The translations under genes were made by a program, and so were the position numbers. A DNA stretch of 62,594 nucleotides, the filler included, from Candidatus Desantisbacteria bacterium CG1_02_49_89 (lineage in GTDB: Bacteria; Desantisbacteria; UBA1551), in NCBI GenBank assembly GCA_001871075.1. It is 5 parts of 5 records of this genome, joined end to end, with 100 filler letters (N's around TTAATTAATTAA, not from the genome) between each part and the next. Parts side by side here need not be neighbours in the genome. Positions count along the whole stretch, not along the records: positions 1 to 9,872 come from MNUP01000080.1; positions 9,973 to 15,580 come from MNUP01000024.1; positions 15,681 to 25,985 come from MNUP01000026.1; positions 26,086 to 49,733 come from MNUP01000091.1; positions 49,834 to 62,594 come from MNUP01000041.1. The stretch is one strand, 5' to 3'. Of the stretch, positions 421-60,900 are shown piece after piece. Each line of letters opens with the position of its first letter. Positions within the stretch are counted from its first letter, which is position 1. A model generated the notes under the pieces. It was not told where the DNA came from, searched no databases, and was given only the letters and a program-made list of their open reading frames with translations.

Positions 421-580
421 AGATTGAGATTAAGATTGAGATTGAGGAAATATATTAGTTTAACGGTTTGGGAGTAGGGGCTTCAGCCCCGTTATAGGAG
501 TAGGGCCTTTTCGTAGACCCGCCAGTTTTTAAGGAGGGAGGCCCGTTATTTAACGACCCTAAAGGGTCTACTCCTAAAGC
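421..580. repeat. GATTGA 6-mer tandem run plus GTAG-type REP-like hairpin cluster
   Basis: AGATTGAGATTAAGATTGAGATTGAG; GTAGGGGCTTCAGCCCC, GTAGGGCC..., GACCCTAAAGGGTCTAC. Confidence 0.7.
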
Positions 581-649
581 TCTACGATCCACAGCAGTGC
601 AGCCCGCCCGGAAAGCTTTAAAGGGCAGGTTTAACGCACCGGAGGCTTT

Positions 650-3600
650 ATGAAGAAGATTTTATTCCTGGTTCTTATTTTAACTTTTAACTTTTCCGAA
701 TGGATCCCTTTGGGACAACTTTTAACTTTGAACTTTTGCCGCGCGGAAAACGCGCAGGTTGTAAGCAACCCGGGATTCGAGGAGCTTGACCAGGACGGGT
801 GGGCTCCCGGATGGCAGCAGGTCGGCTCCCTGGTTGAGGTCAGCACTAAGGAAGCGCATTCAGGCAAGAATTCCCTTCACTTACTGCGCGCTCCGGGGAT
901 ACCGGATCCTGAGACCGGCCTGAACCGCGACTGGAAACCGGATTCAGGCGAGCAGGGAACAATGCTTTCCCAGAAAAAGGGATGGATCTCATTCTGGTAT
1001 AAGGCACCCAAAGCCAAAGGCAATATTAAGATACTTACTATCCCGATGAGCGCCCGCCCAATGGAAGACACAGGAGAGCAGAGATCAGAGTTCACCATTC
1101 CCTTAGAGCACGTCGGAGACAGCAAGTGGCACCAGGGATGGGTCAAATTCGATTATTCGAAGAACCCTAAGGTCAAATGGGTCCATATCTCCCCCAGGAT
1201 CACCGGGGGCGAGGGAGAGATTTATCTGGATGATTTCGCGTATTTTGACAAGAAAGAAGGACAGCCGAAACTGAGCGAGGGTTCTTTTTCAGAGCCTGAA
1301 TCAGCAGGAGAGCCGGGTGAGGTAAAAGCGGTTGTAGAAAATATCGGGGACCTGGCACTTGCAGGCGTTAAGGTTGAGCTGAAGCTTCCCGCAGGCCTTA
1401 AATCAGATAAACCGCTGGTCCAGACCATCACGAACATTCCTGCGTCAGGCCAGCACACAGCTGTCTGGTCAGTAACAGGCATCAGTGATAAAGCAGAGAA
1501 AGCTAAAATTCTAGTTTACGACAGCAAGGGTGAGGTCGCGCAGTCAAAGGACCTGACCCTTAGGATCAGCCCAGAAACTGATAAAGGCCTTATAGCGTGG
1601 TGGAAGTTTGACGAAGGCAGCGGGACCCTGGCAAAAGATTCTTCCGGGAACGCGTTTGACGGCGAAATAGTGGGGGACGCTGACTGGGATAAGGGTATTT
1701 CCGGCAACGCTCTGAAATTGAACGGCGGGCGCGTCGAGGTCCAGTATGACGAAAAACTGGCGCTGGGCAAGGCGCTCTCGATCCAGATGTGGGTCTGCCC
1801 GACCGATTATGAGCCGGACACATACAAGATCCTGGTCGCTTTGTGGGACAGCTACCTCCTGCGTTTTGACAACCCGCCTGAAGGCGGCAGGCCTTCGTTC
1901 TTTGTGTTTTTGGAAGGGATACCTGAACCCAGGATACAGGGTAAAGTCCCGGAATTGAACAAGTGGGTTTGCGTGACAGCAGTGTGGGACGGCGCGAAAG
2001 ACCAGATATGGATCAACGGTGTAAAAACAGAATCGGACAGGAAGGGGCAAATTACGACCAAACCGAATAATCTTATGATCGGGGAGAATTTCATCGGTTT
2101 GATCGACGACGTCAAGATCTTCAACCGGGCGCTGAAAGAAGACGAGATCGTGGCAAACCTTCCCCCGTCCCCGAAAATTTCACCCTTAAAGGTTTCAACA
2201 CCGCTTGCCGAGACCGGCAAGCCTTTCACGCTTTCCTGCGAGGTTTCAAACGCCGGCGGGAAATCCGCGAAAGACGGCGCAGCGGAGCTTGCGCTCCCCA
2301 AGGGATTCACCATAATTGACGGGACCAGCAAGGTGAATATCGCGCTTCTGAGCAGGAAATCCCCGCAGACATTAAAGTGGACCGTTAAGTCAGACGTTCC
2401 GATTGCGGGCAGCGCGGTAATCACGGTCGGGTTCAGCGGGATGGAACAGCTCACTGCAAACTCGAGGATGGTTGTGGCAAAGCCCATTACGAAAGAGGGC
2501 GCGGTGCCTATAAAACCCGAGATCAGCAGGTCAGGTGATGATTTCATACTTGCGAACGATAAGGTGCGCCTTGTATTTCCTAAAAACGATTTCGGGTACG
2601 GGGTATTCGCTGTTGACGTCAATAAGGACGGGAAATGGGAGAGGGTGGCTTCCGCAAGCTCCCTGAGCTACCTTGCGGTCAAAAAGGACCAGAATATAAT
2701 AAGGAAACATATATACTGCGGTTCGGGAAACCCGATCCAGCTTGATTCCGGAGAGGCAGGCATTGAATTCAGGGATACGATAGATGACGGGACAGGCACT
2801 AACTGGAAGTTCCGCTGCCTGTTCCTTATAGGAAAAGACGACAGGATAAAGACGGAATACGAAGCAGTGCCTGACAAGGACGGCAGCCTTGTTGTTTTGT
2901 ACGGCCCGATGCTTTACGCGGGAGAGGGAAGTTTCGGCTCAAAGAAGGACGACGGCCTGTTCTGCGGGCTTGAGTGGCTGGTGGGAGACGAACAGTCTTC
3001 TTCCAACCTTGACATGCACGACCCTGACTATTATTTAAGGTATGTTCCGCACGGGAACAAGCCTACTATCCCGTTCATGGCGGTTTCAAAGGACGGGACT
3101 GCGATAGCCCTTATGTGGGACGCTTTGCAGAAATGGGATGGCGCAAACATAAGGCCTGCCGCGGTCTATGCGTCTCCAAATTTCATTGACGGTCAGGAAA
3201 ACCATCTAATGGGATTGTTCCTGCCTTCCACGATCGAGTGGCTGGGGCAGAACAACCTTGAGGCGGTCAGCAACCCGTATCCTTTTAAAAAAGGAGTGCC
3301 GCTGAAGATCGTTTCCCATATAGTCGCGGCAACGCCTGTAAAAGAATCCATAGATTGCCTTAACAGATGGTTCAATACATACGGTGTGACTGATCCTGCT
3401 CCGCTTCCGAGAGGCAGCTATACAAAAGAGATAGAATTCAGCATGAAGGCGTACCTTGAATCTTTATGGGCTGAAGGAGAGAAGCAGTGGTGGACATCCA
3501 AAGGCGGAGGGGATATGAGCCTGAAAGGGGTTCCGCCTTCTTTCGCGTTCCAGCTTAAAATGGCTTCTGTAATGACAAAAGACGAAGAGCTGAAAAAGAA

Positions 3601-9760: not shown

Positions 9761-9771
9761 AAGGAGCTTTA

Positions 9772-9972: not shown

Positions 9973-9998
9973 TTCCGCACAGGAAAAAACCACACTTG

Positions 9999-10334
9999 TG
10001 TTCCGCAACATTCAAAAGCGGACATTTGGGAACCTTAAAACCGAACATTAATTAAAGATGGAACTCTCCAATTTTCTGCTCATCCTTTAAAACAATAATC
10101 TTTCTGTTGGGGATAAGACCCACGGTTACTTCCTGTTCTGGAAATCGTCCTACTTTCCAGGTTCTGCCTTCGAGAGTACCCACCCCCCTCACCCTACCCC
10201 TCTCCCTCGAGGGGAGAGGATAAAGGAGAGGGTGATTATTACCTGATTTTTAAACCAGCCAGCCTAAATAATTTTCCCCCGGCTATGTGACACTTTGATT
10301 GTTCCCAATGTGACCTTTTGATTATTTCCGCACA
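9999..10334 (-). mobile_element. 336-bp non-autonomous IS-derived element (TGT...ACA ends, IS481/IS1202-like), copy 1
   Basis: Imperfect TIRs TGTTCCGCAACATTCAAAAGCGGACA / TGTGACCTTTTGATTATTTCCGCACA with internal repeats; similar copy at 49402-49733; minus-strand ORF remnant EGRTWKVGRFPEQEVTVGLIPNRKIIVLKDEQKIGEFHL*. Confidence 0.7.
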
Positions 10335-10351
10335 TAAAAAAACGGGCACAT

Positions 10352-10407: not shown

Positions 10408-10414
10408 AAATAAA

Positions 10415-10517
10415 ATTATGAGTTATGAATTATGAGTTATGAATCAACGGCAAGGTATCGATTTAAATAAAATTCCATGCATTTGACTCATAATTCATCA
10501 TTCATAATTCATAATTG
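10415..10517. repeat. TTATGAR 7-mer inverted tandem element
   Basis: (TTATGAG/TTATGAA)n - core - (TCATAAT)n; relatives at 41919, 46848, 52888, 54605, 54862, 60311. Confidence 0.9.
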
Positions 10518-12187: not shown

Positions 12188-12283
12188 GCGTATCAGCGTA
12201 TCAACGTGTCAGCGTATCAGAGCAAATGCAAGGAATAATTTATTTCAATAAATCCTTGTTACTGCGTTGACACGTTGACACTG
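12188..12283. repeat. TTGACACG 8-mer inverted tandem element
   Basis: GCGTATCAGCGTATCAACGTGTCAGCG - GCAAGGA...TCCTTG - GTTGACACGTTGACAC. Confidence 0.85.
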
Positions 12284-12602: not shown

Positions 12603-12723
12603 GATTACGGTGATTATCAACTTATGATTACGGTGATTATCAACTCATGATTACGGTGATTAAAATAATCACTGCAATCTCTTTCATAATCACTGTAATC
12701 ATCTTCTAAAAATCACTGCAATC
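12603..12723. repeat. GATTACGGTGATT inverted tandem element
   Basis: 3x GATTACGGTGATT then 3x AATCACTG(C/T)AATC; relatives at 18250, 35570, 42622. Confidence 0.9.
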
Positions 12724-12724
12724 A

Positions 12725-14656
12725 TTATTTATTGTCATCGCGGTGGAATTCCGCGTCAACAGCGCCGTCTTTCCCGGGCTGCGCCTGTTCGGAACCTTCG
12801 GCCTGCGCCTGCGCGCCGGCGCCCGGACCTGCGGCGCTCTCGGCGCCTGCGCTCTCCGCTCCGGGCTGTTCCTGGCCGGGTTTTGCCTGCCTTTTTGTCT
12901 GCGCTTCCTTATAAACAGCCTCGGAAAGGCGGTAAGTCGCGTTGGTGAGTTCCTCCGTCGCCTTCTTGATCTTTTCCGCGTCCTTTCCTTTCAAGGCTTC
13001 TTTCACTGTGTTTATCGAAGATTCGATCTTTGATTTCTCGTCAGCCTTGATCTTGTCCCCGTGCTCCTTGAGCAGTTTCTCGGTCTGGTAAACAAGAGAA
13101 TCAGCCTGGTTCCTCGCTTCCACTTCCTCCTTGCGTCTTGCGTCTTCCGCGGCCGCTTTCTCGGCTTCCTTGACCATCCTGTCAATTTCATCCTTTGAAA
13201 GCTTTGTGGGGGCTGTGATCCTTATGCTCTGTTCCTTACCTGTACCAAGGTCTTTCGCGGAAACGTGCAGTATGCCGTCCGTATCGATATCAAACGCGAC
13301 CTCGATCTGCGGGATTCCGCGCTGCGCCGGCAGTATGCCTGTGAGCTGGAAAGTGCCGAGTTTCGTATTGTCATCAGCCATCGTCCTTTCTCCCTGCAGC
13401 ACGACTATAGCAACTTCAGGCTGGTTGTCTGCCGCGGTCGAAAAGATCTGGCTTCTGCGCGCGGGAATAGTTGTATTCCTTTCGATCAGTTTCGTGAGAA
13501 CGCCTCCCAGCGTTTCAACTCCCAGGGAAAGCGGCGTTACGTCAAGCAGGACAAGGTCCTTGTCTTTCAGCTCTCCTGCGATCACCGCGCCCTGGACAGC
13601 CGCGCCCATTGCAACGCACTCCATTGGGTCAATGCCCCTTTCAACCTTTTTACCGACATAATCTTCAACGAATTTCTGCAGCACCGGCATCCTGGTGGGG
13701 CCGCCCACAAGTATTATCTTTGAAATTTCGCTGGGGCTTATCTTCGCGTCTTTAAGCGCCTGTTCTATTGAACCGCGGCACTTTTCTATGATATCCATAA
13801 CCAGCTCTTCAAGCTTTGCCCTTCTAAGGGTCAGCGCAAGATGCTTAGGGCCTGTCTGGGGGTCGCCTGTTATAAAAGGAAGGTTGATGTCAGTGGAGAG
13901 TGTGGTGGAAAGCTCTATCTTCGCCTTCTCCGCCGCCTCCCGCACCCTCTGCATTGCCATTTTATCCTTCTTAAGGTCTATGCCCGATTCCTTCTTGAAT
14001 TCCCCGGCAACGTAATCAACAAGGATGTTATCCATATCAGTGCCGCCCAGCTGTGTGTCACCGCTGGTTGACATAACCTTGAAAACACCCTTATCCATGT
14101 CCATTATTGTAACATCCAGAGTGCCGCCGCCGAAATCAAAAACCATGATCTTCTGTTCCTGTTCCAGCTTATCAAGCCCGTACGCAAGGCAGGCTGCTGT
14201 AGGCTCGTTGATTATGCGCACAACGTTCAGGCCGGCTATCGTGCCCGCATCCTTGGTCGCCTGGCGCTGGTTATCGTTGAAATACGCAGGGCAGGTTATG
14301 ACGGCTTTCTCTATCTTACCCCCTATGAACGCCTCAGCGTCCTTCTTGATCTTCTGCAGTATGAACGCGGATATCTGCTGGGGGGTATATTCCTTTCCAT
14401 ATATATTAAGCTTAATGTCCTGGCCCATCTTCCTTTTAACAGCCATAACAGTGCCTTCGGAGTTTGCGACTGTCTGGCGCCTTGCCGGCTCGCCGACAAG
14501 GAGCTGCCCGTCTTTCGTGAATGCGACGTATGAGGGAAACGCCTTACCTCCGATGGATGTGCCCTCGGCGCTCGGGATTATAACCGGCTTCCCCATCTCC
14601 ATTACTGACGCCGCTGAATTGCTTGTTCCCAGGTCTATTCCTATAATTTTGGCCAT
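12725..14656 (-). CDS. dnaK: Chaperone DnaK (Hsp70)
   Basis: [33 protein letters not shown] motifs. Confidence 0.99.
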
Positions 14657-14762
14657 TGTGCACCTCGCTTTCCAACTACAGTGTCAAGTAACAAGTGCCA
14701 AGTGTCAAGTAGAAACTGTTTTTACTAACTACTTGTTACTTGTAACTTGTTACTATTTAATA

Positions 14763-14779
14763 AGCAAGGAGAGTGCCAA
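14763..14779 (-). promoter_or_regulatory. Sigma54 -24/-12 promoter for dnaK-groES-groEL
   Basis: Minus strand TTGGCACTCTCCTTGCT = TGGCAC-N5-TTGC. Confidence 0.8.
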
Positions 14780-14906
14780 CTTGGTTAGAATTGCAAATTG
14801 CAAATTGCAGATTGCAGATTTATATTGATTTTATTGAGAAATAATTGAAACTATAATTATATAGCCGTGATAATCTGTGTAAATCAGTGTCTAAATATGC
14901 CTTGTA

Positions 14907-19052: not shown

Positions 19053-19178
19053 AATCTTTTAACCACGAATTCCCACGGATTCTTTGCTTCGCAACATTCT
19101 TTGTGGGCTACGTCGATAAACGACGAATTTCACGAATTATAAACTTGTAAACTCTGTAAACTATGTAAACTGTATAAA

Positions 19179-19541
19179 CTATTTTTTTCTATAAACAACG
19201 CGCACGGAATCGGATTCTGAAACGCAAACTTCAACAAGGTTTGGCAGGATTTTTTTCAGGCCCGAAAAAATAAATTTCGCTATGTTCTCAGAGGAAGGAT
19301 TGTTTTTCCTGAAGAAATCGATCTGGTTCAGGAACGCATGGTCAAGATTTTTATTGACGAAACCTTCGGCTATGTCTTTTACTTCTCCGGCATCCCTCAC
19401 CATGCCCAGCTTGTCCAGTTTACCCGAACGCAGGAATACTTCAACCTTCCAGTTGTGCCCGTGAAGCTTCGCGCACCTGCCTTTGTGCCCGCGTATGCTG
19501 TGAGCCGCCGAAAAATCAGTCCCTACTCTCAATTCAAACAT
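19179..19541 (-). CDS. queD: 6-carboxytetrahydropterin synthase
   Basis: FSAAH...C..LHGHN...LDH..LN...PSSENIA. Confidence 0.95.
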   Translation of the reverse strand: MFELRVGTDFSAAHSIRGHKGRCAKLHGHNWKVEVFLRSGKLDKLGMVRDAGEVKDIAEGFVNKNLDHAFLNQIDFFRKNNPSSENIAKFIFSGLKKILPNLVEVCVSESDSVRVVYRKK

Positions 19542-20505: not shown

Positions 20506-21612
20506 TTTACTACTGTTTTTTAAATATTCCCTTACGCCGTTATATATGGCTTCCGCTGCCATCTTCCTGAAAGACTCGGTCGCAAGCTTTGCTTCCTCCG
20601 GCGCGTAGGAGAGGAAAGCAACCTCCACAAGGACTGACGGCGCGGCGACTCCCCTCAGCACGTAAAAAAGCGCTGTCTTTACGCCGCGGTCCGTAAGCTT
20701 CAGTTTCTTTACCATATTAGCCTGGATGCTGAAGGCAACCATGCTGCTCTCGCGCACGAATTCGTGATAGATCATGTCTTCAAGGATGGACCTGAGGTAT
20801 TTGTCTTTTGACACCCCGAGCTCCCTGATCTCCAGGTTCACAACTGAGTTTTCAAGGACTTCAACCGCCCTTGCCTCTGGATCAACCGCCTCGGAAACGA
20901 AAAAAGTCTCGCATCCCTGCATCTTCGGCGAGAAAGCGGCGTTGCAGTGTATGCTTATGAAAAGCCCCGCTCCCTTCGAATTCGCGAAAGTTGCCCTGTT
21001 CGCAAGGGTCACGAACGTATCTTCATCCCTTGTCATCAGAACCCTGACCGGCAGGCGCATTGTGATAAGCCCGGCAAGTTTTCTCGCGATATCAAGATTT
21101 ATTTCCTTTTCCATCAAACCGTTCGGACCGATCGCACCCGGATCATGGCCGCCGTGGCCAGCGTCAACTATGATGAGATTGATCTTTGGAATAAATTGTT
21201 CTTCCTGCTCCTGCTTCTGCTCCTGCTCCTGCTTCTGTTTCTGCTCCTTTACCTCGTTTTTTACACCTGCTTTTGCTGATTCTCTAAGCAATCTGCCTGA
21301 AAACGCCTTGACCGCGAAACTGGACGGAACAAAAATAACGCCGTCTAAAATTTTAACCGGTGCTTCAAGGCTGAAAAGCCTGTTGTTAATAAGAGCGCGC
21401 TGGCCCTGCGGGAGCAGAACAACGGTTTCACCCGGCCCTTTCAGGACTATCCTTCCGGGATAGAACTTGTGCTGGTAGTTAAAACCATATCCCTTGCATA
21501 TATCTTCCAGCGCGATATATTCCCTGCCGTCGATCTCCGTTGTTTTCAACTCGGCCGCCTGGCAAAAAGATGCAATAAATATAAAAATCAGTATTGAAAT
21601 ATAGGATTTCAT
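20503..21612 (-). CDS. N-acetylmuramoyl-L-alanine amidase (Amidase_3)
   Basis: DAGHGGHDPGA, EKEINL, FISIHCNA, VLVEVAF. Confidence 0.95.
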   Translation of the reverse strand: MKSYISILIFIFIASFCQAAELKTTEIDGREYIALEDICKGYGFNYQHKFYPGRIVLKGPGETVVLLPQGQRALINNRLFSLEAPVKILDGVIFVPSSFAVKAFSGRLLRESAKAGVKNEVKEQKQKQEQEQKQEQEEQFIPKINLIIVDAGHGGHDPGAIGPNGLMEKEINLDIARKLAGLITMRLPVRVLMTRDEDTFVTLANRATFANSKGAGLFISIHCNAAFSPKMQGCETFFVSEAVDPEARAVEVLENSVVNLEIRELGVSKDKYLRSILEDMIYHEFVRESSMVAFSIQANMVKKLKLTDRGVKTALFYVLRGVAAPSVLVEVAFLSYAPEEAKLATESFRKMAAEAIYNGVREYLKNSSK

Positions 21613-21980
21613 TTGTTTTTGTCAGTTTCTCTTTTTTCTATTCCCAAAATCAGATTGGTAAGCATCCTGCAAACTATATCCAGATCGTTTCTGTAATTCT
21701 CAACCTCGATATTTGTTAAAATCTCGTTGCTCCTGCACATTTCCAATAAAGGAACGCACTCAAAAGCTGACCCTCTTGCTATCAGGAAAAATTGCTTTCT
21801 ATCATTCTTGCTGAACCTACCGTTCCCTTCAGCTATATTAAGGGATATAGACATTGAAGCTCTTCTTAACTGGTCTATCAAAGAATAATAACCCTTTATT
21901 TGCTCAGTTGATTTAGTAATTTTATTACTGAATTCTAAAGCCCTTTTATATACGTCTAATTTTTCAAAAAGAAATGGCAT
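21609..21980 (-). CDS. Four helix bundle protein (23S rRNA IVP / Avd-like family)
   Basis: FEKLDVY...DQLRRASMSISLNIAEG...FFLIARGSAFE; AT-rich relative to neighbours. Confidence 0.92.
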   Translation of the reverse strand: MPFLFEKLDVYKRALEFSNKITKSTEQIKGYYSLIDQLRRASMSISLNIAEGNGRFSKNDRKQFFLIARGSAFECVPLLEMCRSNEILTNIEVENYRNDLDIVCRMLTNLILGIEKRETDKNK

Positions 21981-22575: not shown

Positions 22576-22584
22576 ATTAATACC

Positions 22585-22650
22585 GTCGTACGTCGTAGGT
22601 CGTACGTTTTAAAGATTTATACGTACGACGTAAGACGCATGACGCGCGAC
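22585..22650. repeat. CGTACGT 7-mer inverted tandem element
   Basis: GTCGTACGTCGTAGGTCGTACG ... ACGTACGACGTAAGACGCATGACG; relatives at 23191-23270 and 44838. Confidence 0.85.
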
Positions 22651-23110: not shown

Positions 23111-23344
23111 TGTTTTTCAACTATTCAACTAAAGACTTTTTACAGGGAACCCTCCACTAAGATTGGCGGGCAGGCTTAAGAGAACTTATTTCGTCGTGCG
23201 TCGTAAGTCGTATGTCGTTCGCAAATGATTTTAATAATACGCAAGACGTTCGACACATGACGTATGACGGCATTATGAATCCCGCTGAATCCCTGTGAAA
23301 ATTGTATTTTCTATGAAAATCCGTGTAAATCCGTGGCTCAATTA

Positions 23345-31931: not shown

Positions 31932-32687
31932 TCAGGCTCCACGGAGAATACAGGCTTTCACGAACGGCGAAGCCAGCTTTTTCATATTTTCAAGTTCATC
32001 CGGTTTGTAAGGAGCTATTTTCCTGAATTCCGGCTTCATTGCCTGTTTGTTTACAAAATTCTGCAGGCAATATTTCCTTGCCCCCTTTATTGACCTGGCA
32101 ATGGAAACCACATCATCAGCGGTGTGAAGCGAAGGCACAATGGTTGTCCTGAATTCGTATTCAATGCCGCTCTCCATTATTGTCTTTATGCTTTCTTTTA
32201 TCCTTCTAATGTCTATTTTTACTCCCGCCGCCTCTTCGTATTTTGTCTTCTTCCTTTTTTTCTCTGACACGTTGACACGTTGACACGTTGACACGTCATC
32301 TATTGGTGCCTTCACGTCCATTGCTATGTAATCAACCATCTTATTTTTTAGCAGGTCTTTTACAGTATCGGGCAGAGCGCCGTTGGTGTCAAGCTTTACT
32401 TTCATCCCAAGTTCCCTGATCTCTTTCAGCAATTCCCCTATATCCGCGTAGATGCAGGGTTCGCCTCCGGTCAGGCATATGCCGTCGATCCATCTCCTGA
32501 ATTTTTGGAGGTGTTCCTTTATCTTTGCAAGCGGGATCGTTTCATGCTTTTCCGGATGCAGGACAAGGCCCTGGTTCTGGCAGAAAGGGCAACGGAAATT
32601 ACACCTGGAAACAAAGAGCGTGGACACTATCCTGCCGTCCCAGTCAAGCATTGACGATTCGATCATTCCCTTAATTTCTATTTTCAT
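31932..32687 (-). CDS. Anaerobic ribonucleotide reductase activating enzyme-like radical SAM protein
   Basis: CNFRCPFC, TGGEP, KLDTNG, MDVKAP, EFRTT. Confidence 0.9.
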   Translation of the reverse strand: MKIEIKGMIESSMLDWDGRIVSTLFVSRCNFRCPFCQNQGLVLHPEKHETIPLAKIKEHLQKFRRWIDGICLTGGEPCIYADIGELLKEIRELGMKVKLDTNGALPDTVKDLLKNKMVDYIAMDVKAPIDDVSTCQRVNVSEKKRKKTKYEEAAGVKIDIRRIKESIKTIMESGIEYEFRTTIVPSLHTADDVVSIARSIKGARKYCLQNFVNKQAMKPEFRKIAPYKPDELENMKKLASPFVKACILRGA

Positions 32688-37297: not shown

Positions 37298-37384
37298 TTT
37301 CTCGTAACCTCGTAACCACGGATTAACACGGATTTACACGGATTCAACTTTTAACTTTTAACTTTTAACGTTCAACTTTCAACT

Positions 37385-38380
37385 TTATTTTAAGGAAACC
37401 GGCTTGCCGGTCTTCGCGGACTGCAGGATCGCGAGCGCTATCCTCAGGGCTTCCCTGCCGTCTTCTCCCGTGACAGCGGGAGTTTTCCCGCCTGCGGCGC
37501 AACAGTCTATAAAGTGGTCTGTCTGCTTCAGGAAACCGTCCATCAAACTGCTGCTCTTGACCCTGCCTGTCTTGCCTTTTTCTTTTTCGCTTGAAATAAT
37601 GAATTCTGTGTGATCCCCTTCAGGGGCTCCGAAGATCAGCGCCCCTCCCGGCCCCATTGTGTCATGAAGCCCCGAGGTGCCGCATCCGTCGGGCAGGCCC
37701 CATGACCAGGAAAGCATCTGCACGTCGCCTGATCTAAAAGTTATCACGGCCACGCCCGAATCAAGGGCGGTCCTGTCTTTCCTGAATTTTGTTATATTGG
37801 CGCATACCTCTTTTGCCTCGCCGAAAGTAAAGCGCGCGAAATCGTAGGAATGCACCGCACCGTCCACGAACGGGCCCCCGCCGATCTTTTCATCCATGAA
37901 CCAGGGGGCAGGTGGAGCCGAGCCTCCCGCAACATGGCGCCAGTATACCGGCCTTCCTATCGCGCCGGACTGTATTAGTTCCCTGTATTTCAGCCATTCG
38001 TCATCAAACCTTCTTACAAAACCGACCTGCAAGATCACCTTTGCTTTTTTGCTTTCCGCGATCATCTTATCGGCGTTCTCTATGCTCATACATATGGGTT
38101 TTTCGCAGAAAACGTGCTTCCCCGCTCTTGCCGCGTCAACAACGATATCCGTGTGGAAAAACGTGGGCGTGCAGCACAGTATGGCGTCCACCCCGGACTT
38201 AAGCAGCTCCCTGTGATCCTTGAAAGAATATTTCGCGCCCATCCTTGCCTTCGCGTCCGCTGCTTTCTTCTCGTCAACATCCGCGACCGCTATAACTTCC
38301 GCTTTGTCCTTGAGCTTCGCGAGCATGTCCATGTGCAGGCCCGCTATCCCTCCGCATCCGACGATCCCGATCTTTACCAT
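37385..38380 (-). CDS. Gfo/Idh/MocA oxidoreductase
   Basis: GCGGIA, HVFCEKP, DGAVH..D. Confidence 0.93.
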   Translation of the reverse strand: MVKIGIVGCGGIAGLHMDMLAKLKDKAEVIAVADVDEKKAADAKARMGAKYSFKDHRELLKSGVDAILCCTPTFFHTDIVVDAARAGKHVFCEKPICMSIENADKMIAESKKAKVILQVGFVRRFDDEWLKYRELIQSGAIGRPVYWRHVAGGSAPPAPWFMDEKIGGGPFVDGAVHSYDFARFTFGEAKEVCANITKFRKDRTALDSGVAVITFRSGDVQMLSWSWGLPDGCGTSGLHDTMGPGGALIFGAPEGDHTEFIISSEKEKGKTGRVKSSSLMDGFLKQTDHFIDCCAAGGKTPAVTGEDGREALRIALAILQSAKTGKPVSLK

Positions 38381-41918: not shown

Positions 41919-42021
41919 AATTATGAATTATAAATTATGAGTTATGAGTCAAAAACAAGGATTTTTATTTAAATTTAATTCCATGCTGTTGATTCATAAT
42001 TCATAACTCATAATTCATAAT
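41919..42021. repeat. TTATGAR 7-mer inverted tandem element
   Basis: Arms around core AAAAACAAGGATTTTTATTTAAATTTAATTCCATGC. Confidence 0.9.
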
Positions 42022-42025
42022 TGTC

Positions 42026-43469: not shown

Positions 43470-44456
43470 TCATTTTGCCTTCAATGATCCCACAAGCAAA
43501 CCTATTTTTTTGATCCTGTTTTCAACCATATATTTCCTGATGCCGTCTATTATTTCCGGTATCGCGCGGGGATTAACAAAATTCGCCGTGCCAACAGCTA
43601 CTGCTTTCGCCCCGCACACCATGAATTCAAGGGCGTCGCGCGCGTCCATGATCCCGCCCATGCCTATTATTGGTATCCTGACGGTATTATATACTTCCCG
43701 GACCATCCTCAGCGCTATCGGTTTTATTGCCGGGCCTGAAAGCCCCCCGGTTGTGTTGCTTAGGCAGGGTGTTCTTTTTTCAAGGTTTATCGCCATACCA
43801 AGCGGCGTGTTTATCAGGGAAACCGCGTCAGCCCCTGCCCTTTCAACCGCCCTCGCTATTATTTTTATGTCGGTCACGTTCGGGGAAAGCTTTACTATAA
43901 GGGGAAGTCTGGTAATTCTGCGCACCCTTCGGACCACGCCAGCCGCTGCTTTTTCATCCTGGGCGAACATTCTTAACCTTTCCTTTTCTTTCCTCTCCCT
44001 TGACGGGAGAGGACTAAGGTGAGGGTGAAGGTTTGGGCAGGAAATATTCAGTTCTATTCCCGAAACACCCCTGACACCCTTCAGCTCCCTTGTTATATCT
44101 GTGTATTCCTGCTCTGTTTCCCCGCCGATACTCACTATTATGGGTATTCCCGGCTTCCTGAGAACAGGCATCTTATCTCTTATGAACGCTTCTGTTCCCG
44201 GGTTCTGCAGGCCGATGCAGTTGAGCATCCCGCTGTATGTTTCTTTTATCCTCGGAGGCGGATTTCCCTTCCTGGGCTTCAGGGTGATCGTCTTTGTCAC
44301 TATGGCGCCCATCTCTTTAAGATCAAAGAATTCCGCGTATTCCTCGCCGAACGCGAACGTGCCGGACCCACACATTACCGGATTTTTCATCTTTATCCCA
44401 GCTATATTTACTGATAAATCAGTGGTGAGTGGTGAGTGGTGAGTGGTGAGTTTCAC
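43470..44456 (-). CDS. pyrD: Dihydroorotate dehydrogenase 1B catalytic subunit (with repeat insertions)
   Basis: GNPPPR, ELNISCPN, KLSPN, GGLSGPAIKP. Confidence 0.97.
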   Translation of the reverse strand: MKLTTHHSPLTTDLSVNIAGIKMKNPVMCGSGTFAFGEEYAEFFDLKEMGAIVTKTITLKPRKGNPPPRIKETYSGMLNCIGLQNPGTEAFIRDKMPVLRKPGIPIIVSIGGETEQEYTDITRELKGVRGVSGIELNISCPNLHPHLSPLPSRERKEKERLRMFAQDEKAAAGVVRRVRRITRLPLIVKLSPNVTDIKIIARAVERAGADAVSLINTPLGMAINLEKRTPCLSNTTGGLSGPAIKPIALRMVREVYNTVRIPIIGMGGIMDARDALEFMVCGAKAVAVGTANFVNPRAIPEIIDGIRKYMVENRIKKIGLLVGSLKAK

Positions 44457-44612: not shown

Positions 44613-45500
44613 TCAGACGATCTCTCCCGCGTTGAAGACCGGGCCGTCCTTGCACACAAGCTTGTAACCTTGTTTTGTATTAACGGGGCAGCCGTAACAG
44701 GCGCCAATCCCGCATGCCATATCCTCTTCAAGCGATACCTGGCACGGTATTTTATGCTTCGCTGCGATCCTAGATACTTCCCTGAGCATTGCTTTTGGCC
44801 CGCACGCGTACACCGTCGAGCGTTTGTTTTTTCGTATAACGTATGACGTACGACGTACGACGTTTTCTAAAAGCCCAGTAACCAGACCCTTATAGCCTTT
44901 AGAGCCATCGTCGGTACTGACCTTTACCGTACAACCTAGGTTCTTGAATTCGTTCTCGCACAGCAGTTCTTTCTTTGTCTTCGCCCCTATTAAAACTATG
45001 ATCCTGGATCCTGGATGCTGGATGCTGGATGAAGGATTTAAATTTAACTTTTGCAATTTACAATTTGACTTTTGCAATTCTTCTGCTAACAGCAGAAGAG
45101 GCGCTACCCCCATCCCTCCTGCGACCAGTATAGCCGAATTTATTTTTCTGGGTATACTGAACCCGTTTCCAAGAGGTCCGATAACATTTATGATCTCACC
45201 CGGTTTCTTCCGCGCAAGCGCTTCTGTTCCCTTCCCTACTGTCTTATAAAATATTTCTATCCATCCTTGCTTTTGCGCTGACACGTTGATACGTTGATAC
45301 GCTGATACGTTTGCATTATTGATTTTATGGATGCTGAACGGCCTGCGCAGCAGGATCCCCGCAGGTCCCGAACACCTTATATGAACAAATTGCCCCGGTC
45401 TTGCCTTTATGGCAATAAGCGGGGCAATGATCTTTAACCTGTAAAAATCCGGCCCTACCTTTTTATTTTCAATTATCCTGCACTTTTCAGTCTTCACCAT
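44613..45500 (-). CDS. pyrK: Dihydroorotate dehydrogenase electron transfer subunit (three repeat insertions)
   Basis: PGQF, RRPFS, AGGMG.AP, MACGIGACYGC...CKDGPVF. Confidence 0.95.
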   Translation of the reverse strand: MVKTEKCRIIENKKVGPDFYRLKIIAPLIAIKARPGQFVHIRCSGPAGILLRRPFSIHKINNANVSAYQRINVSAQKQGWIEIFYKTVGKGTEALARKKPGEIINVIGPLGNGFSIPRKINSAILVAGGMGVAPLLLLAEELQKSNCKLQKLNLNPSSSIQHPGSRIIVLIGAKTKKELLCENEFKNLGCTVKVSTDDGSKGYKGLVTGLLENVVRRTSYVIRKNKRSTVYACGPKAMLREVSRIAAKHKIPCQVSLEEDMACGIGACYGCPVNTKQGYKLVCKDGPVFNAGEIV

Positions 45501-45558
45501 GCTCCGTCTTTACAATTTGCAATTTAAAATTTACAATTTACAATTTGAAATTTGTAAT

Positions 45559-46833
45559 TTATAAGGAATACAACACTCTTCCCCCCACTATCGTCGTCAC
45601 CACCCTTCCTCTCACTGTCCTGCCGATAAAAGGCGAGTTCTTGCACGGACCCGCGAAATCCGCCGGTGCTATCGTCCATTCAGCGCCCGTGTCAAATATG
45701 ACAACATCGGCATCCTGATCCGGCGCTATGACTCCCTTTTTCAAACCAAGGATCCTCGCTGGATTTACCGTCATCTTGGCAACCGCGCTCTTCAGTGTGA
45801 TCACCCCTTCTCCGACTATTTCTGTCAGGATAAGCGCCAGGCAAGTTTCAAGGCCTACCATTCCGAACGGGGCTGAGCGGTAATCATCGTCCTTTTCTTC
45901 CTGGCTGTGCGGCGCGTGGTCCGTCGCGATGGCGTCTATCGTTCCGTCGCGTAATCCCTTCCTCAGCGCGGATATGTCATCCCTGGTCCGCAGCGGCGGG
46001 TTCACCTTTGTGCTGGTATCGAATCCCCTTACCAGGTCATCGGTAAGTATGAGATGGTGGGGTGTAACCTCGGCGCTGACATTTACCTTCTTTCTTTTCG
46101 CCTGTTTCAAGATCTCGACTGTTCCCCTTGTGCTTGAGTGCGATATGTGCAGGGCGCCGCCGGTCATGGCGGCAAGAGAGATATCCCGGTACACTATCAC
46201 TTCCTCGGCCTCTGCCGGCATTCCCGTTATTCCCAGCACAGTCGAATTATAACCTTCGTTCATCACGCCGTTCCTTGAAAGCTGCTTGTCCTGGCAGTGG
46301 GACATTATTGGCAGGCTGAACATTTTCGCGTATTCAAAAGCCCTGCGCATTACAAGCGCGTTCATAACGCTGTCCCCGTCATCAGAAAGCGCCACTACGC
46401 CCGCGTCCTTCAGCTCGCTTATCTCCGCGAGCTCCTCGCCCTTCCTTCCTTTGGTTATGGCACCCACCGGGAAAATCCTTACCGTCCCGCCCCTGTTCTC
46501 CTTAGCTTTTTCAAGGATGTATTTCACGGTCCCGGGGCTGTCGATGGGAGGATTCGTATTAGGCATGCAGCATATGCTGGTAAAACCGCCTTTTAACGCG
46601 GCAAGGGAGGTCTGCGCTATCGTTTCCTCGTCTTCCCTGCCAGGCTCCCTGAGATGGCAGTGCATGTCGATAAGGCCCGGGGCCACGGTTTTACCTTTTG
46701 CGTCTATGACGCGGGCGTTCTTTTCCCTGATGTTCTTGCCTACGGCGGCGATCTTATCATCCTTGATAAGGATGTCCAGTTTTCCTTCTTTTCCGCCCGG
46801 GTTTACGACCCTTCCGTTCTTTATAAGTATCAT
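45559..46833 (-). CDS. pyrC: Dihydroorotase
   Basis: DMHCHLREPG, MPNT, KVNPPLR, ATDHAPH. Confidence 0.98.
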   Translation of the reverse strand: MILIKNGRVVNPGGKEGKLDILIKDDKIAAVGKNIREKNARVIDAKGKTVAPGLIDMHCHLREPGREDEETIAQTSLAALKGGFTSICCMPNTNPPIDSPGTVKYILEKAKENRGGTVRIFPVGAITKGRKGEELAEISELKDAGVVALSDDGDSVMNALVMRRAFEYAKMFSLPIMSHCQDKQLSRNGVMNEGYNSTVLGITGMPAEAEEVIVYRDISLAAMTGGALHISHSSTRGTVEILKQAKRKKVNVSAEVTPHHLILTDDLVRGFDTSTKVNPPLRTRDDISALRKGLRDGTIDAIATDHAPHSQEEKDDDYRSAPFGMVGLETCLALILTEIVGEGVITLKSAVAKMTVNPARILGLKKGVIAPDQDADVVIFDTGAEWTIAPADFAGPCKNSPFIGRTVRGRVVTTIVGGRVLYSL

Positions 46834-46984
46834 TCTTTTTCCTTAAATTATAAATTATGAGTTATGAATTATGAGTTAAAAGCAAAGGATGTTATTTAAA
46901 GTCAATTCGTGAAAATTCGTGTTAATTCGTGGTTAAAAATTATGCTTTAGCGGTAATCTTAAACTTTCAGCTTTCAGCTTTGAG

Positions 46985-47926
46985 CTAAATTTGCTTCTGT
47001 GCCAGAAGCAGGTATAGCACCGCCATCCTGACCGCTATGCCGTTGGTGACCTGTTCCAGTATCACCGAACAGGCACCGTCTGCCACGCTGCTCGAGATCT
47101 CTATCCCGCGATTTATCGGGCCCGGGTGCATAACAAGGCAGTCGCTCTTTGCAAGCTTCAGCCTTTCCGGCGTGATGCAGAAATCCTTCACGTATTCATG
47201 TATGCTGGGGAAGAAATTGCTGGTCTGCCTTTCCAGCTGTATCCTGAGGCCCATAATAACGTCCGCGTCTATGAACGCCTCCTCAGGCCGGTAAAAAACC
47301 TGCACTTTAAGGTCCTGAGCCCTGGGCGGGATGAGCGTTGGCGGGCCCACAACCTTTACCACCGCGCCCATCTTGGTAAGCCCCCAGATGTTGGAGCGCG
47401 CCACCCTGCTGTGCAGGATGTCGCCTATTATCACCACGTTAAGGCCTTCTATTTTTTTCTTTTTTTCCCGGATAGTGAACATGTCAAGCAGCGCCTGGGT
47501 TGGATGCTCGTGCGAGCCGTCCCCGGCGTTCACTAACGACGCCTTCAGGACCCTGCTCAGCAGGAAAGCCGCCCCTTCCACCGGGTGCCTCACGACAACA
47601 GCGTCAACCTCCATTGCCTGGATGTTGCGCGCGGTGTCCGTGAGGCTTTCTCCCTTCACAACGCTGGAAGCTGAAGAGGCAATGTTGATCACGTCTGCGC
47701 TCAGCCTTTTTGACGCGAGTTCAAATGAAATGCGGGTTCGGGTGCTGGGTTCGTAGAAAAGATTTACAACGGTTTTACCCCTAAGGGCAGGCACTTTCTT
47801 GATGGGGCGGATGGAAACTTCCTTGAATCCTCTTGCGGTATCAAGTATGAGTTCGATCTCTTCCCTGCTCAGTTCTTCTATTCCAAGAAGGTCTTTTCTT
47901 TTAAACACAATCTTCTTGCTGTTCAT
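46985..47926 (-). CDS. pyrB: Aspartate carbamoyltransferase catalytic subunit
   Basis: [24 protein letters not shown]. Confidence 0.99.
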
Positions 47927-48028
47927 TCCTCTTCCTCATTCCTGCTGCATGCATTAACTATTCGTTTAAATTTATTCCTTGTTTTTGCGTTGATACGTTG
48001 ATACGCTGACACGTTGACACGCTTTATA

Positions 48029-48580
48029 TTATGGACTGTTAACAACAACTTCATCCCTTCCATCCGACTCTTTCATCCTTACTTCCACTATTTGGCGGTG
48101 TGTTGTTGAAATGGACACTCCGGAATAATCCGCCTGTATCGGCAGTTCCCTCAGGCCCCTGTCAACCAGCACCGCGAGCTGTATGTTCCTCGGCCTTCCG
48201 AAATCCACAAGCTCATCCATCGCGGCGCGGATGGTCCTGCCGGTGTAAAGCACGTCGTCAACAAGGACTATTTTCCTGTCCGTAAGGTCAAAACCTATCT
48301 CCGTGCTCCTTACGATCGGCTGGGCTGAGATCGTTGTGAGGTCGTCGCGGTACAGGGTTATGTCAAGGATACCCAGCGGGACCTCAGCCTTATATTTGCT
48401 TTTTAACAATACGGCGATGCGGTCCGCGATATGGGCGCCCCTCATCCGGATGCCTACTATCGCAAGGTCTTTCAGCCCGTTCTTCGCGCTGTTCCTCTGC
48501 GCTATCTCATCGCAGATCCGTGCGATCGTCTTGCTTACCCCGTTTTTATCCAGTATTACCTGTGTCTTATTTGTCTTCAT
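48029..48580 (-). CDS. pyrR: Pyrimidine regulatory protein / uracil PRTase
   Basis: LDITLYRDD, LVDDVLYTGRTIRAA, DRGLRELPI. Confidence 0.97.
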   Translation of the reverse strand: MKTNKTQVILDKNGVSKTIARICDEIAQRNSAKNGLKDLAIVGIRMRGAHIADRIAVLLKSKYKAEVPLGILDITLYRDDLTTISAQPIVRSTEIGFDLTDRKIVLVDDVLYTGRTIRAAMDELVDFGRPRNIQLAVLVDRGLRELPIQADYSGVSISTTHRQIVEVRMKESDGRDEVVVNSP

Positions 48581-48752
48581 TTTTTCCTGGCTAACTTATC
48601 CTGCTGTACCCACCCTTGTCCGCCAATTCTTAAGGTGGAAATCTTTAAGGAGTGTGATTTGATATTACGATAAAATTCCTTGTTGTTGCGTTGACACGCT
48701 GATACGTTGACACGTTGACACGCTTTAAAAAGGAAACTGACTTAACTGTCTT

Positions 48753-51703: not shown

Positions 51704-51748
51704 AAACGTGTCAGCGTGTCAGCGTATCAACGTGTCAGAGTAAAAGCA

Positions 51749-52672: not shown

Positions 52673-52956
52673 ATAATCACCACGGAAGCACGGAAAAATA
52701 ATTCAGCCACGGATTCTTTGCTCCGCAACATTCTTTGTGGGCTGCGTCGATAAACGACGAATTTCACGGATTTTAAACTGTGTAAACTTTATAAACTCTG
52801 TAAACTATATAAACTGCATATATAACCACGGGTGAACACAGGTTGACGCAAGTTAACACTGTTTAGAATAAGAATCCTTGCTTTTGATTCATAACTCATA
52901 ATTTTTTACTAATGACTAATGACAAATGACAAATGACTGTATTTAAAGGAGGGCAA

Positions 52957-53691: not shown

Positions 53692-53809
53692 GTAGCTGCA
53701 AAGGTTGCTTTGCTATAGGTTAAAAAGGTTAAAGGTGTTAAAAGTTAAAAAGGTTGAAAACTCAATCTGTGAAAATCCGTGTTAATCCGTGGTTACAGGA
53801 GGTTTTGTT

Positions 53810-54610
53810 GTGGAAAATGTAAAGCTGGGGAATCTTGAGGTCAGCAGGTTTATACTCGGCGCGAATCCGTTCTGCGGTTTCTCGCACCATTCGATCGAAA
53901 AAGACTGGGAGATGCGCAAATATTTCACGGTTGACAGGATAAAGCAGCTCCTTCGCCAGGCCGAATCACTGGGCGTGAATTCGCTTATAGCCAGGGTGGA
54001 TTTCCATATCATGCGCATGCTTCTTGAATACTACGGCGAGGGAGGGAAGATCCAGTGGATCGCGCAGGTATGTTCGGATGTTGCCGGAAATATAAAGTCC
54101 GGGATCGAAGCCGCTATTAATTACGGCGCGAAAGCCTGTTTCATTCACGGTGGGCACATGGATTATATGGTCTCGCAGTCCAAGGCTGACATTGTAGGCC
54201 CGGTCCTTCAGATCGCGAAAGACAAAGGTATCCCGGTCGGCGTTGCCGGGCACAACCCGGAAGTTTTCAAGTGGGCTTTAGAAAACCTTAAACTTGATTT
54301 TTACATGTGTTCCCACTACGACCCGATACCGCGCGAGGACAATCCCCAGCACAGGTTCGGGGCTAAAGAGGAATTCAAGGAAGAGCAGAGGCAGGCAATG
54401 GCAAAGGTCATAAAGGGCCTTCCCGCACCGGTAATACACTACAAGATATTGGCAGGCGGAAGGAATGACCCCCGTGAGGCGTATGAGTTCACGGCGGGCA
54501 TAATGCGCCCGGGGGACGCGGTGTGCGTGGGAATTTACCCGCCGGACAAAAAGGATATGATGAAGGAGAACATAGAACTCTTAGAGAGCAGCTTGAAAAA
54601 ACAATTATGA
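53810..54610 (+). CDS. Hypothetical protein, aldo/keto-reductase-like fold
   Basis: LGNLEVSRFILGANPF.GFSH, GVAGHNP, HYKILAGGR; GGAGG RBS before GTG. Confidence 0.7.
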   Translation: MENVKLGNLEVSRFILGANPFCGFSHHSIEKDWEMRKYFTVDRIKQLLRQAESLGVNSLIARVDFHIMRMLLEYYGEGGKIQWIAQVCSDVAGNIKSGIEAAINYGAKACFIHGGHMDYMVSQSKADIVGPVLQIAKDKGIPVGVAGHNPEVFKWALENLKLDFYMCSHYDPIPREDNPQHRFGAKEEFKEEQRQAMAKVIKGLPAPVIHYKILAGGRNDPREAYEFTAGIMRPGDAVCVGIYPPDKKDMMKENIELLESSLKKQL

Positions 54611-54708
54611 ATTATGAATGATGAATTATGAATTAAAAGCAAGGATTTTATTTAAAGTTTTTGATTCATAACTCATAACTCATAATTAATTTTGAAAGGG
54701 AGGGTGTT

Positions 54709-54858: not shown

Positions 54859-55001
54859 TAGTTATGAATGATGAATTATGAATTATGAATGAAGGAATCA
54901 GGGCTAAAGCCCTGAGTTACCCCGAAGGGATCCCTTTGGGACAATAAAATTCCATGCCGTTGATTCATAATTCATAACTCGTAACTCATAACTAAATACA
55001 A

Positions 55002-56165: not shown

Positions 56166-56291
56166 ATGCAGTTGTTTGTCATTAGTCGTTTGTCATTAGT
56201 CTAACTCAGTGAACTCAGTGCATTCAGTGGCAAAAAGATTTCTCTGTGCCTCCGTGCCTCTGTGGTGATCTTTAGTGTTTTTGGGAAAAAT

Positions 56292-60254: not shown

Positions 60255-60355
60255 AATTAACCACAGGTTAACACAGGTAAACACAGTTTCAGATAAAAAC
60301 CTTGTTTTTGATTCATAATTCATAACTCATAATTCATAATTAGAAAGAGGGAAAA

Positions 60356-60787
60356 ATGAATACGGCGCCGAGTTTAAAAGCAATGCTGACCTGCGACAAC
60401 ATTATAACAGAGCAGGGCACAGGCAAAAAAAGCCTGATAGGGATATTCGAAAAAATACATTCGCAGAGGTTTCCCTGCATGCATCCGGCTTTAAGCGTGT
60501 ACGTGAATTTTACGGATGCCGTGGGGAAATACAATTTCAAGCTGGAATTATACGACGTTGAAAAAGAGAAGGTGCTTGCCGGAGCGGAAATAAAAGACAT
60601 TAACATACCGGACAAGCTGGGCATAAGCGAACTCGCGTTCAACCTGAGGGGACTCGGGTTCGAGCACCCTGGAAAATACGAGTTCAGGATCTCAGCGAAC
60701 GGCAGGTTTTTCGGGATGAAGTCTTTTATGCTTGAGCAGGCTAAAGCGCAGGGCGCTCAGCAGCATCCCGGTGAAACCATCAACTAA
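60356..60787 (+). CDS. DUF6941-like hypothetical protein
   Basis: MLTCDNII.E..TGKKSLIGIF...F..PG.Y. Confidence 0.7.
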   Translation: MNTAPSLKAMLTCDNIITEQGTGKKSLIGIFEKIHSQRFPCMHPALSVYVNFTDAVGKYNFKLELYDVEKEKVLAGAEIKDINIPDKLGISELAFNLRGLGFEHPGKYEFRISANGRFFGMKSFMLEQAKAQGAQQHPGETIN

Positions 60788-60900
60788 CACAAACAATTAA
60801 GAACGCAGGATAAACCACGGAGACACAGAGGCACAGAGAAGAATTTCTTGGTTTTAAACTGGATACTGGATACTGGCAACTGGTAACTGTAGTTAAGGAT

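Follow-up and report, generated by a model that had tools for sequence, protein, structure and literature searches.

The DNA analyzed here (hereafter the window) is a stretch of 62,594 nt from Candidatus Desantisbacteria bacterium CG1_02_49_89, made up of five contigs joined by N runs and drawn from a 2.48-Mb, 150-contig draft genome (G000; 93.5% complete). Among its genes are dnaK, groES, groEL, smpB, hypF, a radical SAM gene, and several pyr genes, and many of the gaps between them, as well as some of the genes themselves, carry short tandem arrays of mostly 7-10-nt units, part of which face inverted copies of themselves. Also present (21609..21980, minus strand) is a small gene whose product, a four-helix-bundle protein, belongs to the family of 23S rRNA intervening-sequence (IVS) proteins; the gene matches PF05635, TIGR02436, and, as its nearest structure, PDB chain 2GSC_A, and has arrays of GGAGCAAT and TCTATTC upstream (22176-22209). 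These arrays, and the small genes that some of them bracket elsewhere in the genome, are the subject of this work. An original prediction made on the window had described them as a genome-wide family of small inverted tandem-repeat elements, and most of the array positions given there are arrays called by Tandem Repeats Finder (TRF), which returned 133 rows within the window; six positions that TRF missed (5252, 18250, 35570, 42622, 53765, and 60860) carry the predicted units when read directly.

Across the genome, TRF called 2787 non-overlapping arrays, including 1022 with a period of 7, 511 with a period of 8, 383 with a period of 9, and 312 with a period of 10. A third-order Markov simulation of equal size produced 18 arrays of at least three copies and a period of 6-10 nt, compared with 1373 in the genome. 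Array lengths were tightly bounded, the medians being 30 nt at period 7, 32 nt at period 8, 36 nt at period 9, and 30 nt at period 10. Together, arrays account for 1.97% of the genome and 9.7% of its intergenic DNA, in-gene and intergenic calls being based on crude open reading frames (ORFs); on these calls, 1577 arrays of at least 2.8 copies and a period of 6-12 fell into 1072 intergenic ones, 118 that straddled an ORF end, and 387 inside ORFs, the last a placement absent from the original prediction. The earlier statement that almost every gap carries an element was too strong, as an array of at least 2.8 copies was found in 27 of the 44 N-free window gaps of at least 30 nt and in 701 of 1333 gaps genome-wide. 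Its count of about 20 units was likewise far below the 408 canonical consensus units detected (241 of them singletons), although many of these are visibly related, and sorting by eye yields perhaps 20 related sets.

Identical arms are dispersed over the genome. The largest family, AATTATG, comprises 99 arrays, and the order of its unit variants, AATTATG-AATTATG-AGTTATG-AATTATG-AAT, is the same at dozens of loci, where the arm is adjoined by a conserved non-repeat core of CAAC(A/G)GCAAGGA, an AT-rich loop, and TCCTTGC(T/C)GTTG. The same core also stands beside arms of another unit family, including the hairpin in the groES-groEL spacer of the window (12188..12281), which has a four-copy GCGTATCA/ACGTGTCA arm, a GCAAGGA-loop-TCCTTG core, and a two-copy inverse arm of CGTTGACA. 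Just past the groEL stop codon lies a palindromic element (10414..10516) with a four-copy TTATGAR arm (10414-10444), its inverse (10488-10516), and a core of CAACGGCAAGG...CCATGCATTTGA. Some array families recur together in fixed order, such as the composite at 19063..19182, in which a CCACGAATT 10-mer array is joined to a GTTTACA 9-mer array in an order repeated at many loci. Polarity is fixed as well, each family being oriented toward the centre of its gap. An inverted partner (a reverse-complement match of at least 15 of 18 positions within 200 nt) was found for 302 of 1381 arrays, compared with 5, 20, and 53 in reversed, complemented, and direct controls; the "often" applied earlier to reverse-complement copies overstated their frequency. 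About one-fifth of the gene-less arrays are arm-loop-arm hairpins, the others being single or mixed arms.

One alternative is that the arrays are ordinary repeats of the short tandemly repeated repetitive (STRR) or long simple sequence repeat (LSSR) kind, arisen by slippage in a lineage without mismatch repair, and that small genes merely lodge in or nucleate such tracts. Heptamers dominate here as they do in LSSR-rich genomes (Mrazek 2007, as summarized in PMC4679880), and the predominance of singletons among the consensus units also fits slippage. However, slippage does not readily account for an identical variant order with an adjacent non-repeat core at dozens of loci, and it would be expected to spread copy numbers broadly rather than hold them under a narrow ceiling near 30 nt.

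Small genes are packaged between such arms. PF05635 returned 11 matches in the genome, corresponding to about ten genes, and by eye inverted arrays of one unit bracket 8 of 10, the unit differing from gene to gene. Similarly, all five genes of PF13366 (GxxExxY, with a PD-(D/E)XK fold) lie between inverted arrays, of 8-10-mer or 23-nt units, again of a different type for each gene. Under a strict test (ungapped inverted score of at least 14), 6 of 9 testable PF05635 genes and 3 of 5 GxxExxY genes qualified, the PF05635 gene on contig C25 being cut by the contig end and that on C114 falling just short with a score of 13. As a control, inverted same-unit arrays bracketed 19 of 2147 ORFs, and these 19 included 6 PF05635 genes and 1 GxxExxY gene. 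The cassettes of both kinds measure 408-677 nt, and one of the cassette genes is a pseudogene. With terminal inverted repeats and arms of tandem heptamers, most of the PF05635 cassettes, the window's own copy not among them, have the build of IVS-type elements, and every cassette examined sits between protein genes and not at helix 25 or 45 of the 23S rRNA, rRNA genes themselves not having been searched for. In all, 15 gene-bearing cassettes stand alongside about 1400 gene-less arrays. Units are shared between the two forms, as in the dnaK-groES spacer of the window (12603..12725), which is filled by 2.6 copies of a 23-nt GATTACGGTGATTAT-type unit and 2.8 inverse copies, a unit type that also flanks a GxxExxY gene on contig C45.

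The arrangement recurs across phyla. PF05635 was detected in 59 of 151 diverse genomes, and for 21 of 27 PF05635 genes from other genomes and phyla the flanks matched in inverted orientation and contained tandem 7-8-mers, compared with 1 of 54 pseudo-genes placed at shifted positions and, in the reversed control, 0 of 28. Among four plasmid matches, two Nostoc plasmid records carry four-helix-bundle genes between inverted heptamer arrays. In a genome of another lineage with a single PF05635 gene (G012), a pattern of three tandem copies of the gene's arm unit matched 114 times, and the control pattern matched 0 times. A like count in genome G040 was set aside, since reversing the unit there yields only a rotation of it and so no valid control. 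The Pseudanabaena galeata plasmid pPg_01 (L376, record 45777-46992) has direct arrays on either side of its four-helix-bundle gene. That gene lies between cas6 and cas4, with about 14 AAAAGCT copies before it and about 9 AAAAGCC copies after it.

Four-helix-bundle and GxxExxY genes had been named beforehand as possible occupants of the space between the arms, together with HUH/RAYT (repetitive extragenic palindromic [REP]-associated tyrosine transposase) and reverse-transcriptase genes. The first two kinds are found there; HUH/RAYT genes are not, and for reverse transcriptases the genome gave a single partial RVT_1 match, so that we dropped this link. This bears on the possibility that the arrays are REP/REPIN (paired REP) elements or MITEs (miniature inverted-repeat transposable elements) moved by RAYT-type Y1 HUH enzymes or by an unassembled insertion sequence. 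The genome does have ten matches to Y1_Tnp (IS200 / RAYT-like), at C23:1740-4248, C111:7531-8076, and on C13, C100, C38, and C114, and small REP-type hairpins are nested within the loops of AATTATG-family elements. In addition, a repeat of about 400 bp and about ten copies, located mostly at contig ends (window 9973-10343 and 49402-49733), may represent the terminus of an insertion sequence missing from the assembly. On the other hand, the Y1_Tnp genes are flanked by REP hairpins of their own and not by tandem arrays, on which ground we rejected a RAYT link to the arrays; target-site duplications were not seen; and self-BLAST of the draft assembly revealed few repeats longer than 300 bp and no large repeat ending in arrays. 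We therefore give this explanation little chance. Several of the Y1_Tnp genes are flanked by REP hairpin arrays (TCAAACCTGAAGGTTTGAGTTACG, TAACTCAGGGCTTTAGCCCTGA) or by inverted repeats of the TAGGGACAG type, and the small hairpins found at Y1_Tnp genes recur inside the loops of array elements.

Comparison with the nearest relative indicates that DNA has been gained at gene junctions. Only one of 30 relatives considered belongs to the same order (G001; 87% complete, 1.53 Mb of sequence compared, GC 0.38), the remaining ones sharing only the domain; its GroEL is 88% identical to that of G000 across 353 matched residues, and a GroEL search of genome contigs returned only matches of 57-69% identity from other phyla, and no close relative. 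This relative has neither the cassette genes (no match to PF05635 or PF13366) nor the flood of arrays: array density is 0.066 per kb, about one-eighth of the 0.553 per kb in G000, recurrent unit families were not found in the 1.53 Mb, and a three-unit TTATGAR pattern that matches 121 times in G000 does not match once. For 267 adjacent gene pairs in synteny, spacers had a median length of 107 nt in G000, compared with 21 nt in the relative; arrays occurred at 131 of the junctions in G000 and at 5 in the relative. G000 junctions with an array had a median excess of 98 nt, and those without one an excess of 0 nt. No arrays were found in the dnaK-groES-groEL spacers of the relative, whose groES-groEL spacer thus differs from that of the window. 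Likewise, pyrC, pyrK, and pyrD abut or overlap in the relative and are separated by array-filled gaps of 58 and 156 nt in G000, the pyrC-pyrK junction being filled by a TTTACAA array of 7.6 copies (45509..45561). The pyrD frame itself begins with an array (CACCACT, 4.4 copies, 44421..44451, minus strand) that supplies its first codons, and pyrD of the relative begins without an array and overlaps pyrK. Given about 400 unit types, chance likeness of units in the relative to G000 families is too likely for us to claim any.

The arrays lie in transcribed junctions and could instead be cis-regulatory or RNA-processing sites of the host. In that case, they would form a post-transcriptional regulon recognized by the four-helix-bundle proteins, serving for instance to punctuate operon mRNAs, and would be kept for the benefit of the host. 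Arrays often start within a stop codon and stop just ahead of the next ribosome-binding site; certain solo families keep to the transcribed strand (AAAGTTG 12:0, AAATTGT 12:1); the G012 genome pairs one protein gene with many cognate sites; and a regulatory role has been proposed for TAACTGA repeats in the account of PMC4679880. Nonetheless, at least 144 arrays lie within coding sequences, where they add only peptide, one cassette gene is a pseudogene, and the relative has the same operons with genes abutting and no arrays. If stems were maintained as RNA, mismatches should lean toward G.U on the sense strand; in 60 elements, 71 were of the G.U type and 79 of the A.C type, which shows no such bias and led us to reject selection on RNA structure. 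A regulon of this kind is therefore very unlikely in our view.

Three independent metagenome contigs are 99.8-99.99% identical to the window over up to 11 kb and agree with it inside every array. The arrays are therefore not assembly artefacts, as the original prediction had allowed they might be, and the constancy of copy number in these three consensus assemblies is a further point against slippage. Contig L137 lacks 10 nt of pyrF (window 43368-43377), which would shift the frame and may be a population variant or an assembly error, and 13 of the 14 mismatches between contig L135 and the window are explained by the contig-end repeat of about 400 bp.

Arrays also lie in frame inside protein genes. 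At least 90 nt deep in ORFs of at least 200 aa, we counted 227 arrays. In 166 of them the period is not a multiple of 3, and of the 163 among these that could be tested, 144 had both flanks reading best in the frame of the ORF (the frame caller being 98% accurate). The window holds six such inserts, all on the minus strand. In hypF, a ACGTTGAC array of 4.6 copies (29501..29537) encodes about aa 661-673 in the HypF_C_2 domain, and a TTTGCAA array of 5.1 copies (30880..30915) encodes a stretch between the zf-HYPF and Sua5 domains (about aa 202-214). The radical SAM gene contains four copies of TGACACGT (32265..32296) at a site where the relative has five copies of AGCTCAA and a hairpin. Three inserts fall in pyrK (44839..45311), namely four copies of AACGTATC with a GCAAAAGCAAGGA half core (45264-45311; 48 nt), four copies of ATTGCAAA followed by a loop and four copies of TCCAGCA (45000-45079), and 3.6 copies of ACGTCGT (44839-44863); all three correspond to gaps in the Lactococcus PyrK chain 1EP3_B and are also inserts relative to the PyrK of G001. 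Rickettsia palindromic elements (RPE), which are about 100-150 bp long and not tandem-built, likewise lie in frame within conserved protein genes. Insertion of that kind is seen here too, small in-frame inserts in conserved genes being tolerated as extra peptide in both cases, a likeness by description between elements that differ in the tandem units of which only ours are built. With at least 144 repeat-encoded peptide inserts, in enzymes such as PyrK, HypF, and CarA, the arrays bear on protein evolution. For the question of origin, the persistence of in-frame heptamer arrays is difficult to reconcile with slippage, since a slip of one unit shifts the frame.

Arrays persist while their units turn over. 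When 100 array-bearing ORFs were compared with the relative by tblastn, 78 matched, with alignments spanning 91 of 114 arrays, and lengths could be compared at 65 in-gene sites with good flanks, giant repeat proteins excluded. The G000 sequence was longer by at least 5 aa at 24 of these sites and by 3-4 aa at 3. The counterpart in the relative was itself periodic above the 95th percentile of the control at 12 of 49 sites, and the relative often has hairpin inserts of its own where G000 has an array. Unit and even period may differ at equal length, as where four copies of TACGACG in G000 correspond to four of TTGCAAA/TTTCAGA in the relative, and at one site ACGTCCG in G000 faces ACGCACG, with two positions changed in every unit. 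For arrays to stay arrays while units change in this way, homogenization or in-place rewriting is required. The same picture arises in several giant repeat proteins of G000 (C58:4196-20011, C21:5563-18369, C138:1-7596, C91:23-7384, and C49:1-2694), in which four different heptamer arrays write one slot of a repeated domain (GxPV(I/L)T...DTQTE). Since orthologous sites carry other units and some arrays replace coding sequence at constant length, in-place turnover by slippage or conversion also shapes the arrays, and these two observations count in favor of slippage as an origin. Conserved genes of the relative contain, in frame, a GTAG-tagged hairpin (TGTAGTGGCAGAGT..ACTCTGCAAGTAG) that encodes a recurrent CSGRV(N/H)SA peptide and often occupies sites of G000 arrays, for example in the counterparts of G000 C122:3781-4872 and C22:17834-18979.

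Slippage would also be aided by the lack of mismatch repair, as MutS domain V and MutL had no match in the draft of G000. Neither had they any in the draft of the relative, in which arrays are nevertheless only one-eighth as dense and form no recurrent families. Weighing these points with those given above, we consider slippage alone an unlikely origin for the arrays. The original prediction of dispersed, inserted elements on a shared architecture, beyond what local slippage would produce, is supported by the shared variant order and core, the 98-nt excess at junctions, and the PyrK insertions; its further suggestion of a dedicated synthesis system finds nothing that points to it.

We instead favor, with a probability of about 0.55, the reading that the arrays are the arms, and lone leftover arms, of IVS-type hairpin cassettes. 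A full cassette would comprise 0.4-0.7 kb, with one small gene, for either a four-helix-bundle IVS/Avd-like protein (PF05635) or a GxxExxY nuclease-fold protein (PF13366), enclosed by a pair of inverted arms; each arm would be about 30 nt long and consist of about four tandem 7-10-nt units, each cassette lineage having a unit of its own. Each cassette protein may work in trans, on arrays of the unit found in its own arms, as RAYT transposases do on REPINs, and the gene-less arrays would depend on these proteins; of the two, the GxxExxY protein, with its nuclease fold, appears the better candidate for DNA cleavage, and the four-helix-bundle protein would be a nucleic-acid binder. Spread could proceed by DNA-level copy-and-paste or by recombination, and an array once inserted would stay periodic as its unit drifts through out-of-register conversion or slippage.

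Several observations weigh against this reading. No inverted partner was found for 78% of arrays. The window's own four-helix-bundle gene (21609..21980) has no downstream arm that we could find, and the arrays flanking the PF05635 gene on C55 are direct rather than inverted. The commonest family, AATTATG, has no gene-bearing member in the G000 assembly, and the leader and trailer segments of the cassettes were not found beside gene-less arrays, the arms alone being common to both, which led us to set aside derivation of the gene-less copies as miniatures. Neither target-site duplications nor a fixed target were visible at the ends of 45 listed copies, and no enzyme could be tied to array movement. 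Within the population, the three consensus assemblies showed no array differences over up to 11 kb; the filled and empty sites anticipated earlier were thus not encountered there, no current activity is seen, and array turnover is not fast. At the 65 orthologous in-gene sites, lengths were equal within 2 aa at 20 and the relative was longer by at least 3 aa at 18. The slots of the giant repeat proteins are as long as those of array-less paralogues and of the relative, and slots filled without a change in length, like the equal-length sites, fit in-place rewriting better than insertion. Finally, the absences in gene content come from one pair of incomplete drafts (93.5% and 87%).

Cyanobacterial STRR sequences are tandem arrays of short units, with heptamers dominant and few unit types, and are mostly intergenic. 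The arrays described here resemble STRR and LSSR in their tandem units of the 5-11-nt type, led by heptamers, in their mainly intergenic location, and in an abundance confined to scattered lineages; they differ in that their unit types number in the hundreds, their lengths are bounded near 30 nt, one-fifth form inverted pairs, many lie in frame in genes, and a link exists to cassette genes. Also comparable are the TAACTGA repeats of Beggiatoaceae and, in Xanthomonas and Nostoc, the GGGNATC repeats. Both are short heptamer arrays with 2-6 units (four being preferred for GGGNATC) that lie between co-directional genes near starts or stops and are co-transcribed. In these accounts (PMC4679880 for TAACTGA, PMC4692102 for GGGNATC), each has one unit per genome, almost never inverted, and no associated gene is reported for either.

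The gene-bearing form has its nearest counterpart in rRNA. As described in the sections of PMC4990558 on Coxiella burnetii, the IVS in helix 45 of the 23S rRNA has terminal inverted repeats with a 28-bp stem and is regarded as a selfish element; three tandem heptamers (GACAGAT), whose number varies across strains, precede its S23p ORF, and RNase III cleaves the IVS at the first heptamer repeat. The same source cites IVS of Leptospira, Brucella, and Xanthomonas, as well as previous suggestions that IVS are, or once were, mobile. An S23p / PF05635 ORF within a terminal stem of about 28 bp, with tandem heptamers as the arm beside it, is thus common to the Coxiella IVS and our cassettes. In contrast to the IVS, however, the G000 cassettes lie between protein genes, include a second cargo gene (GxxExxY), and are accompanied by hundreds of gene-less arrays, and RNase III, which excises rRNA IVS, was not detected in the genome. 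The earlier statement that the mechanism is undescribed accordingly holds in part, the ORF-bearing form matching 23S rRNA IVS and heptamer repeats having been known as STRR and LSSR. The REPIN-RAYT system, as outlined in PMC3116915, is similar in having one gene flanked by its own repeats and many dispersed, gene-less palindromic copies between genes; it differs in that the cassette proteins here are not HUH transposases, the arms are tandem arrays, and the RAYT genes of G000 accompany other hairpins. We found no paper that links PF05635 or GxxExxY genes to dispersed heptamer arrays, or that describes such cassettes, outside rRNA.

The host background offers a lead, not a result, because it comes from a single pair of draft genomes. 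Searches of G000 for RNase III with PF14622, with PF00636, and by tblastn with the protein of the relative gave no match; the relative has the enzyme (G001:C14:1128-1841). The genes downstream of rnc in the relative map to G000 contig C27 from position 680, and the syntenic place (C27:1-680) contains the end of a fabF-like gene followed by a 340-nt repeat-filled spacer. Apparent absence of RNase III may have lifted the cost of long mRNA stems, and its loss together with the lack of mismatch repair may have favored expansion, the absence of MutS and MutL being expected to favor drift of array units.

A more far-reaching proposal is a two-component system without a known transposase, in which each small four-helix-bundle or GxxExxY protein would recognize its own 7-10-nt unit. 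Tracts of about 30 nt would be turned into four tandem units through copying and in-place rewriting, both driven by this protein, in genes as well as between them and in some cases at constant length. In this lineage, the system would have run away after the loss of RNase III had lifted the penalty on long mRNA stems. We consider this proposal distinctly unlikely. If true, it would explain STRR-type heptamer repeats across bacteria and would give PF05635 / Avd-like proteins a role outside diversity-generating retroelements, PF05635 being described as a relative of Avd in PMC10053308. Although abundant heptamer repeats (STRR, LSSR, TAACTGA in giant sulfur bacteria, and GGGNATC) have been recorded for decades, their origin was left unexplained, and the cassettes offer a possible one. 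G000 is an extreme case, its genome being flooded by units of the same kinds as those that bracket its 15 cassette genes.

Further elements of the window follow the same patterns. Arms of the ACTTGTY type (14680-14710 and 14730-14754) stand beside a solo TTGCAAA array (14789-14820), the whole spanning 14680..14820. The smpB gene has a CGTCGTA-armed hairpin downstream (22584..22650) and another, with units of the same family, upstream (23191-23270). The gene junction at 37298..37386 consists entirely of three arrays from the stop codon on (six copies of AAAGTTG, three of the AATCCGTG 10-mer, and two of GTTACGAG), and the pyrB-pyrC junction (46846..46986) also consists of three (AATTATG, 4.7 copies; AATTCGTGAA, 2.8 copies; CTTTCAG, 3.3 copies). 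A TTATGAR palindromic element occupies the alr-pyrE junction (41919..42022), and pyrR is flanked, in direct orientation, by two CGTTGACA arrays of 4.2 copies (47988-48023 and 48689-48722, together 47988..48722). The last contig has further arrays at 51707-51826, 52774-52938, 53717-53790, 54603-54685, 54862-54993, 56170-56264, 60257-60341, 60816-60889, and 61012-61097. Arrays of GGAGCAAT and TCTATTC recur beside tRNA genes and beside the window's four-helix-bundle gene, the loci being 22100-22210 and 61012-61097 in the window and C47:53985-54856 and C88:35469-35687 elsewhere in the genome. Lastly, contig L121:7103-7379 (G001 C1) carries a 17-nt unit in 7.7 copies between heptamer arrays of TCGTGCA (four copies) and TTTGTCA (three copies).

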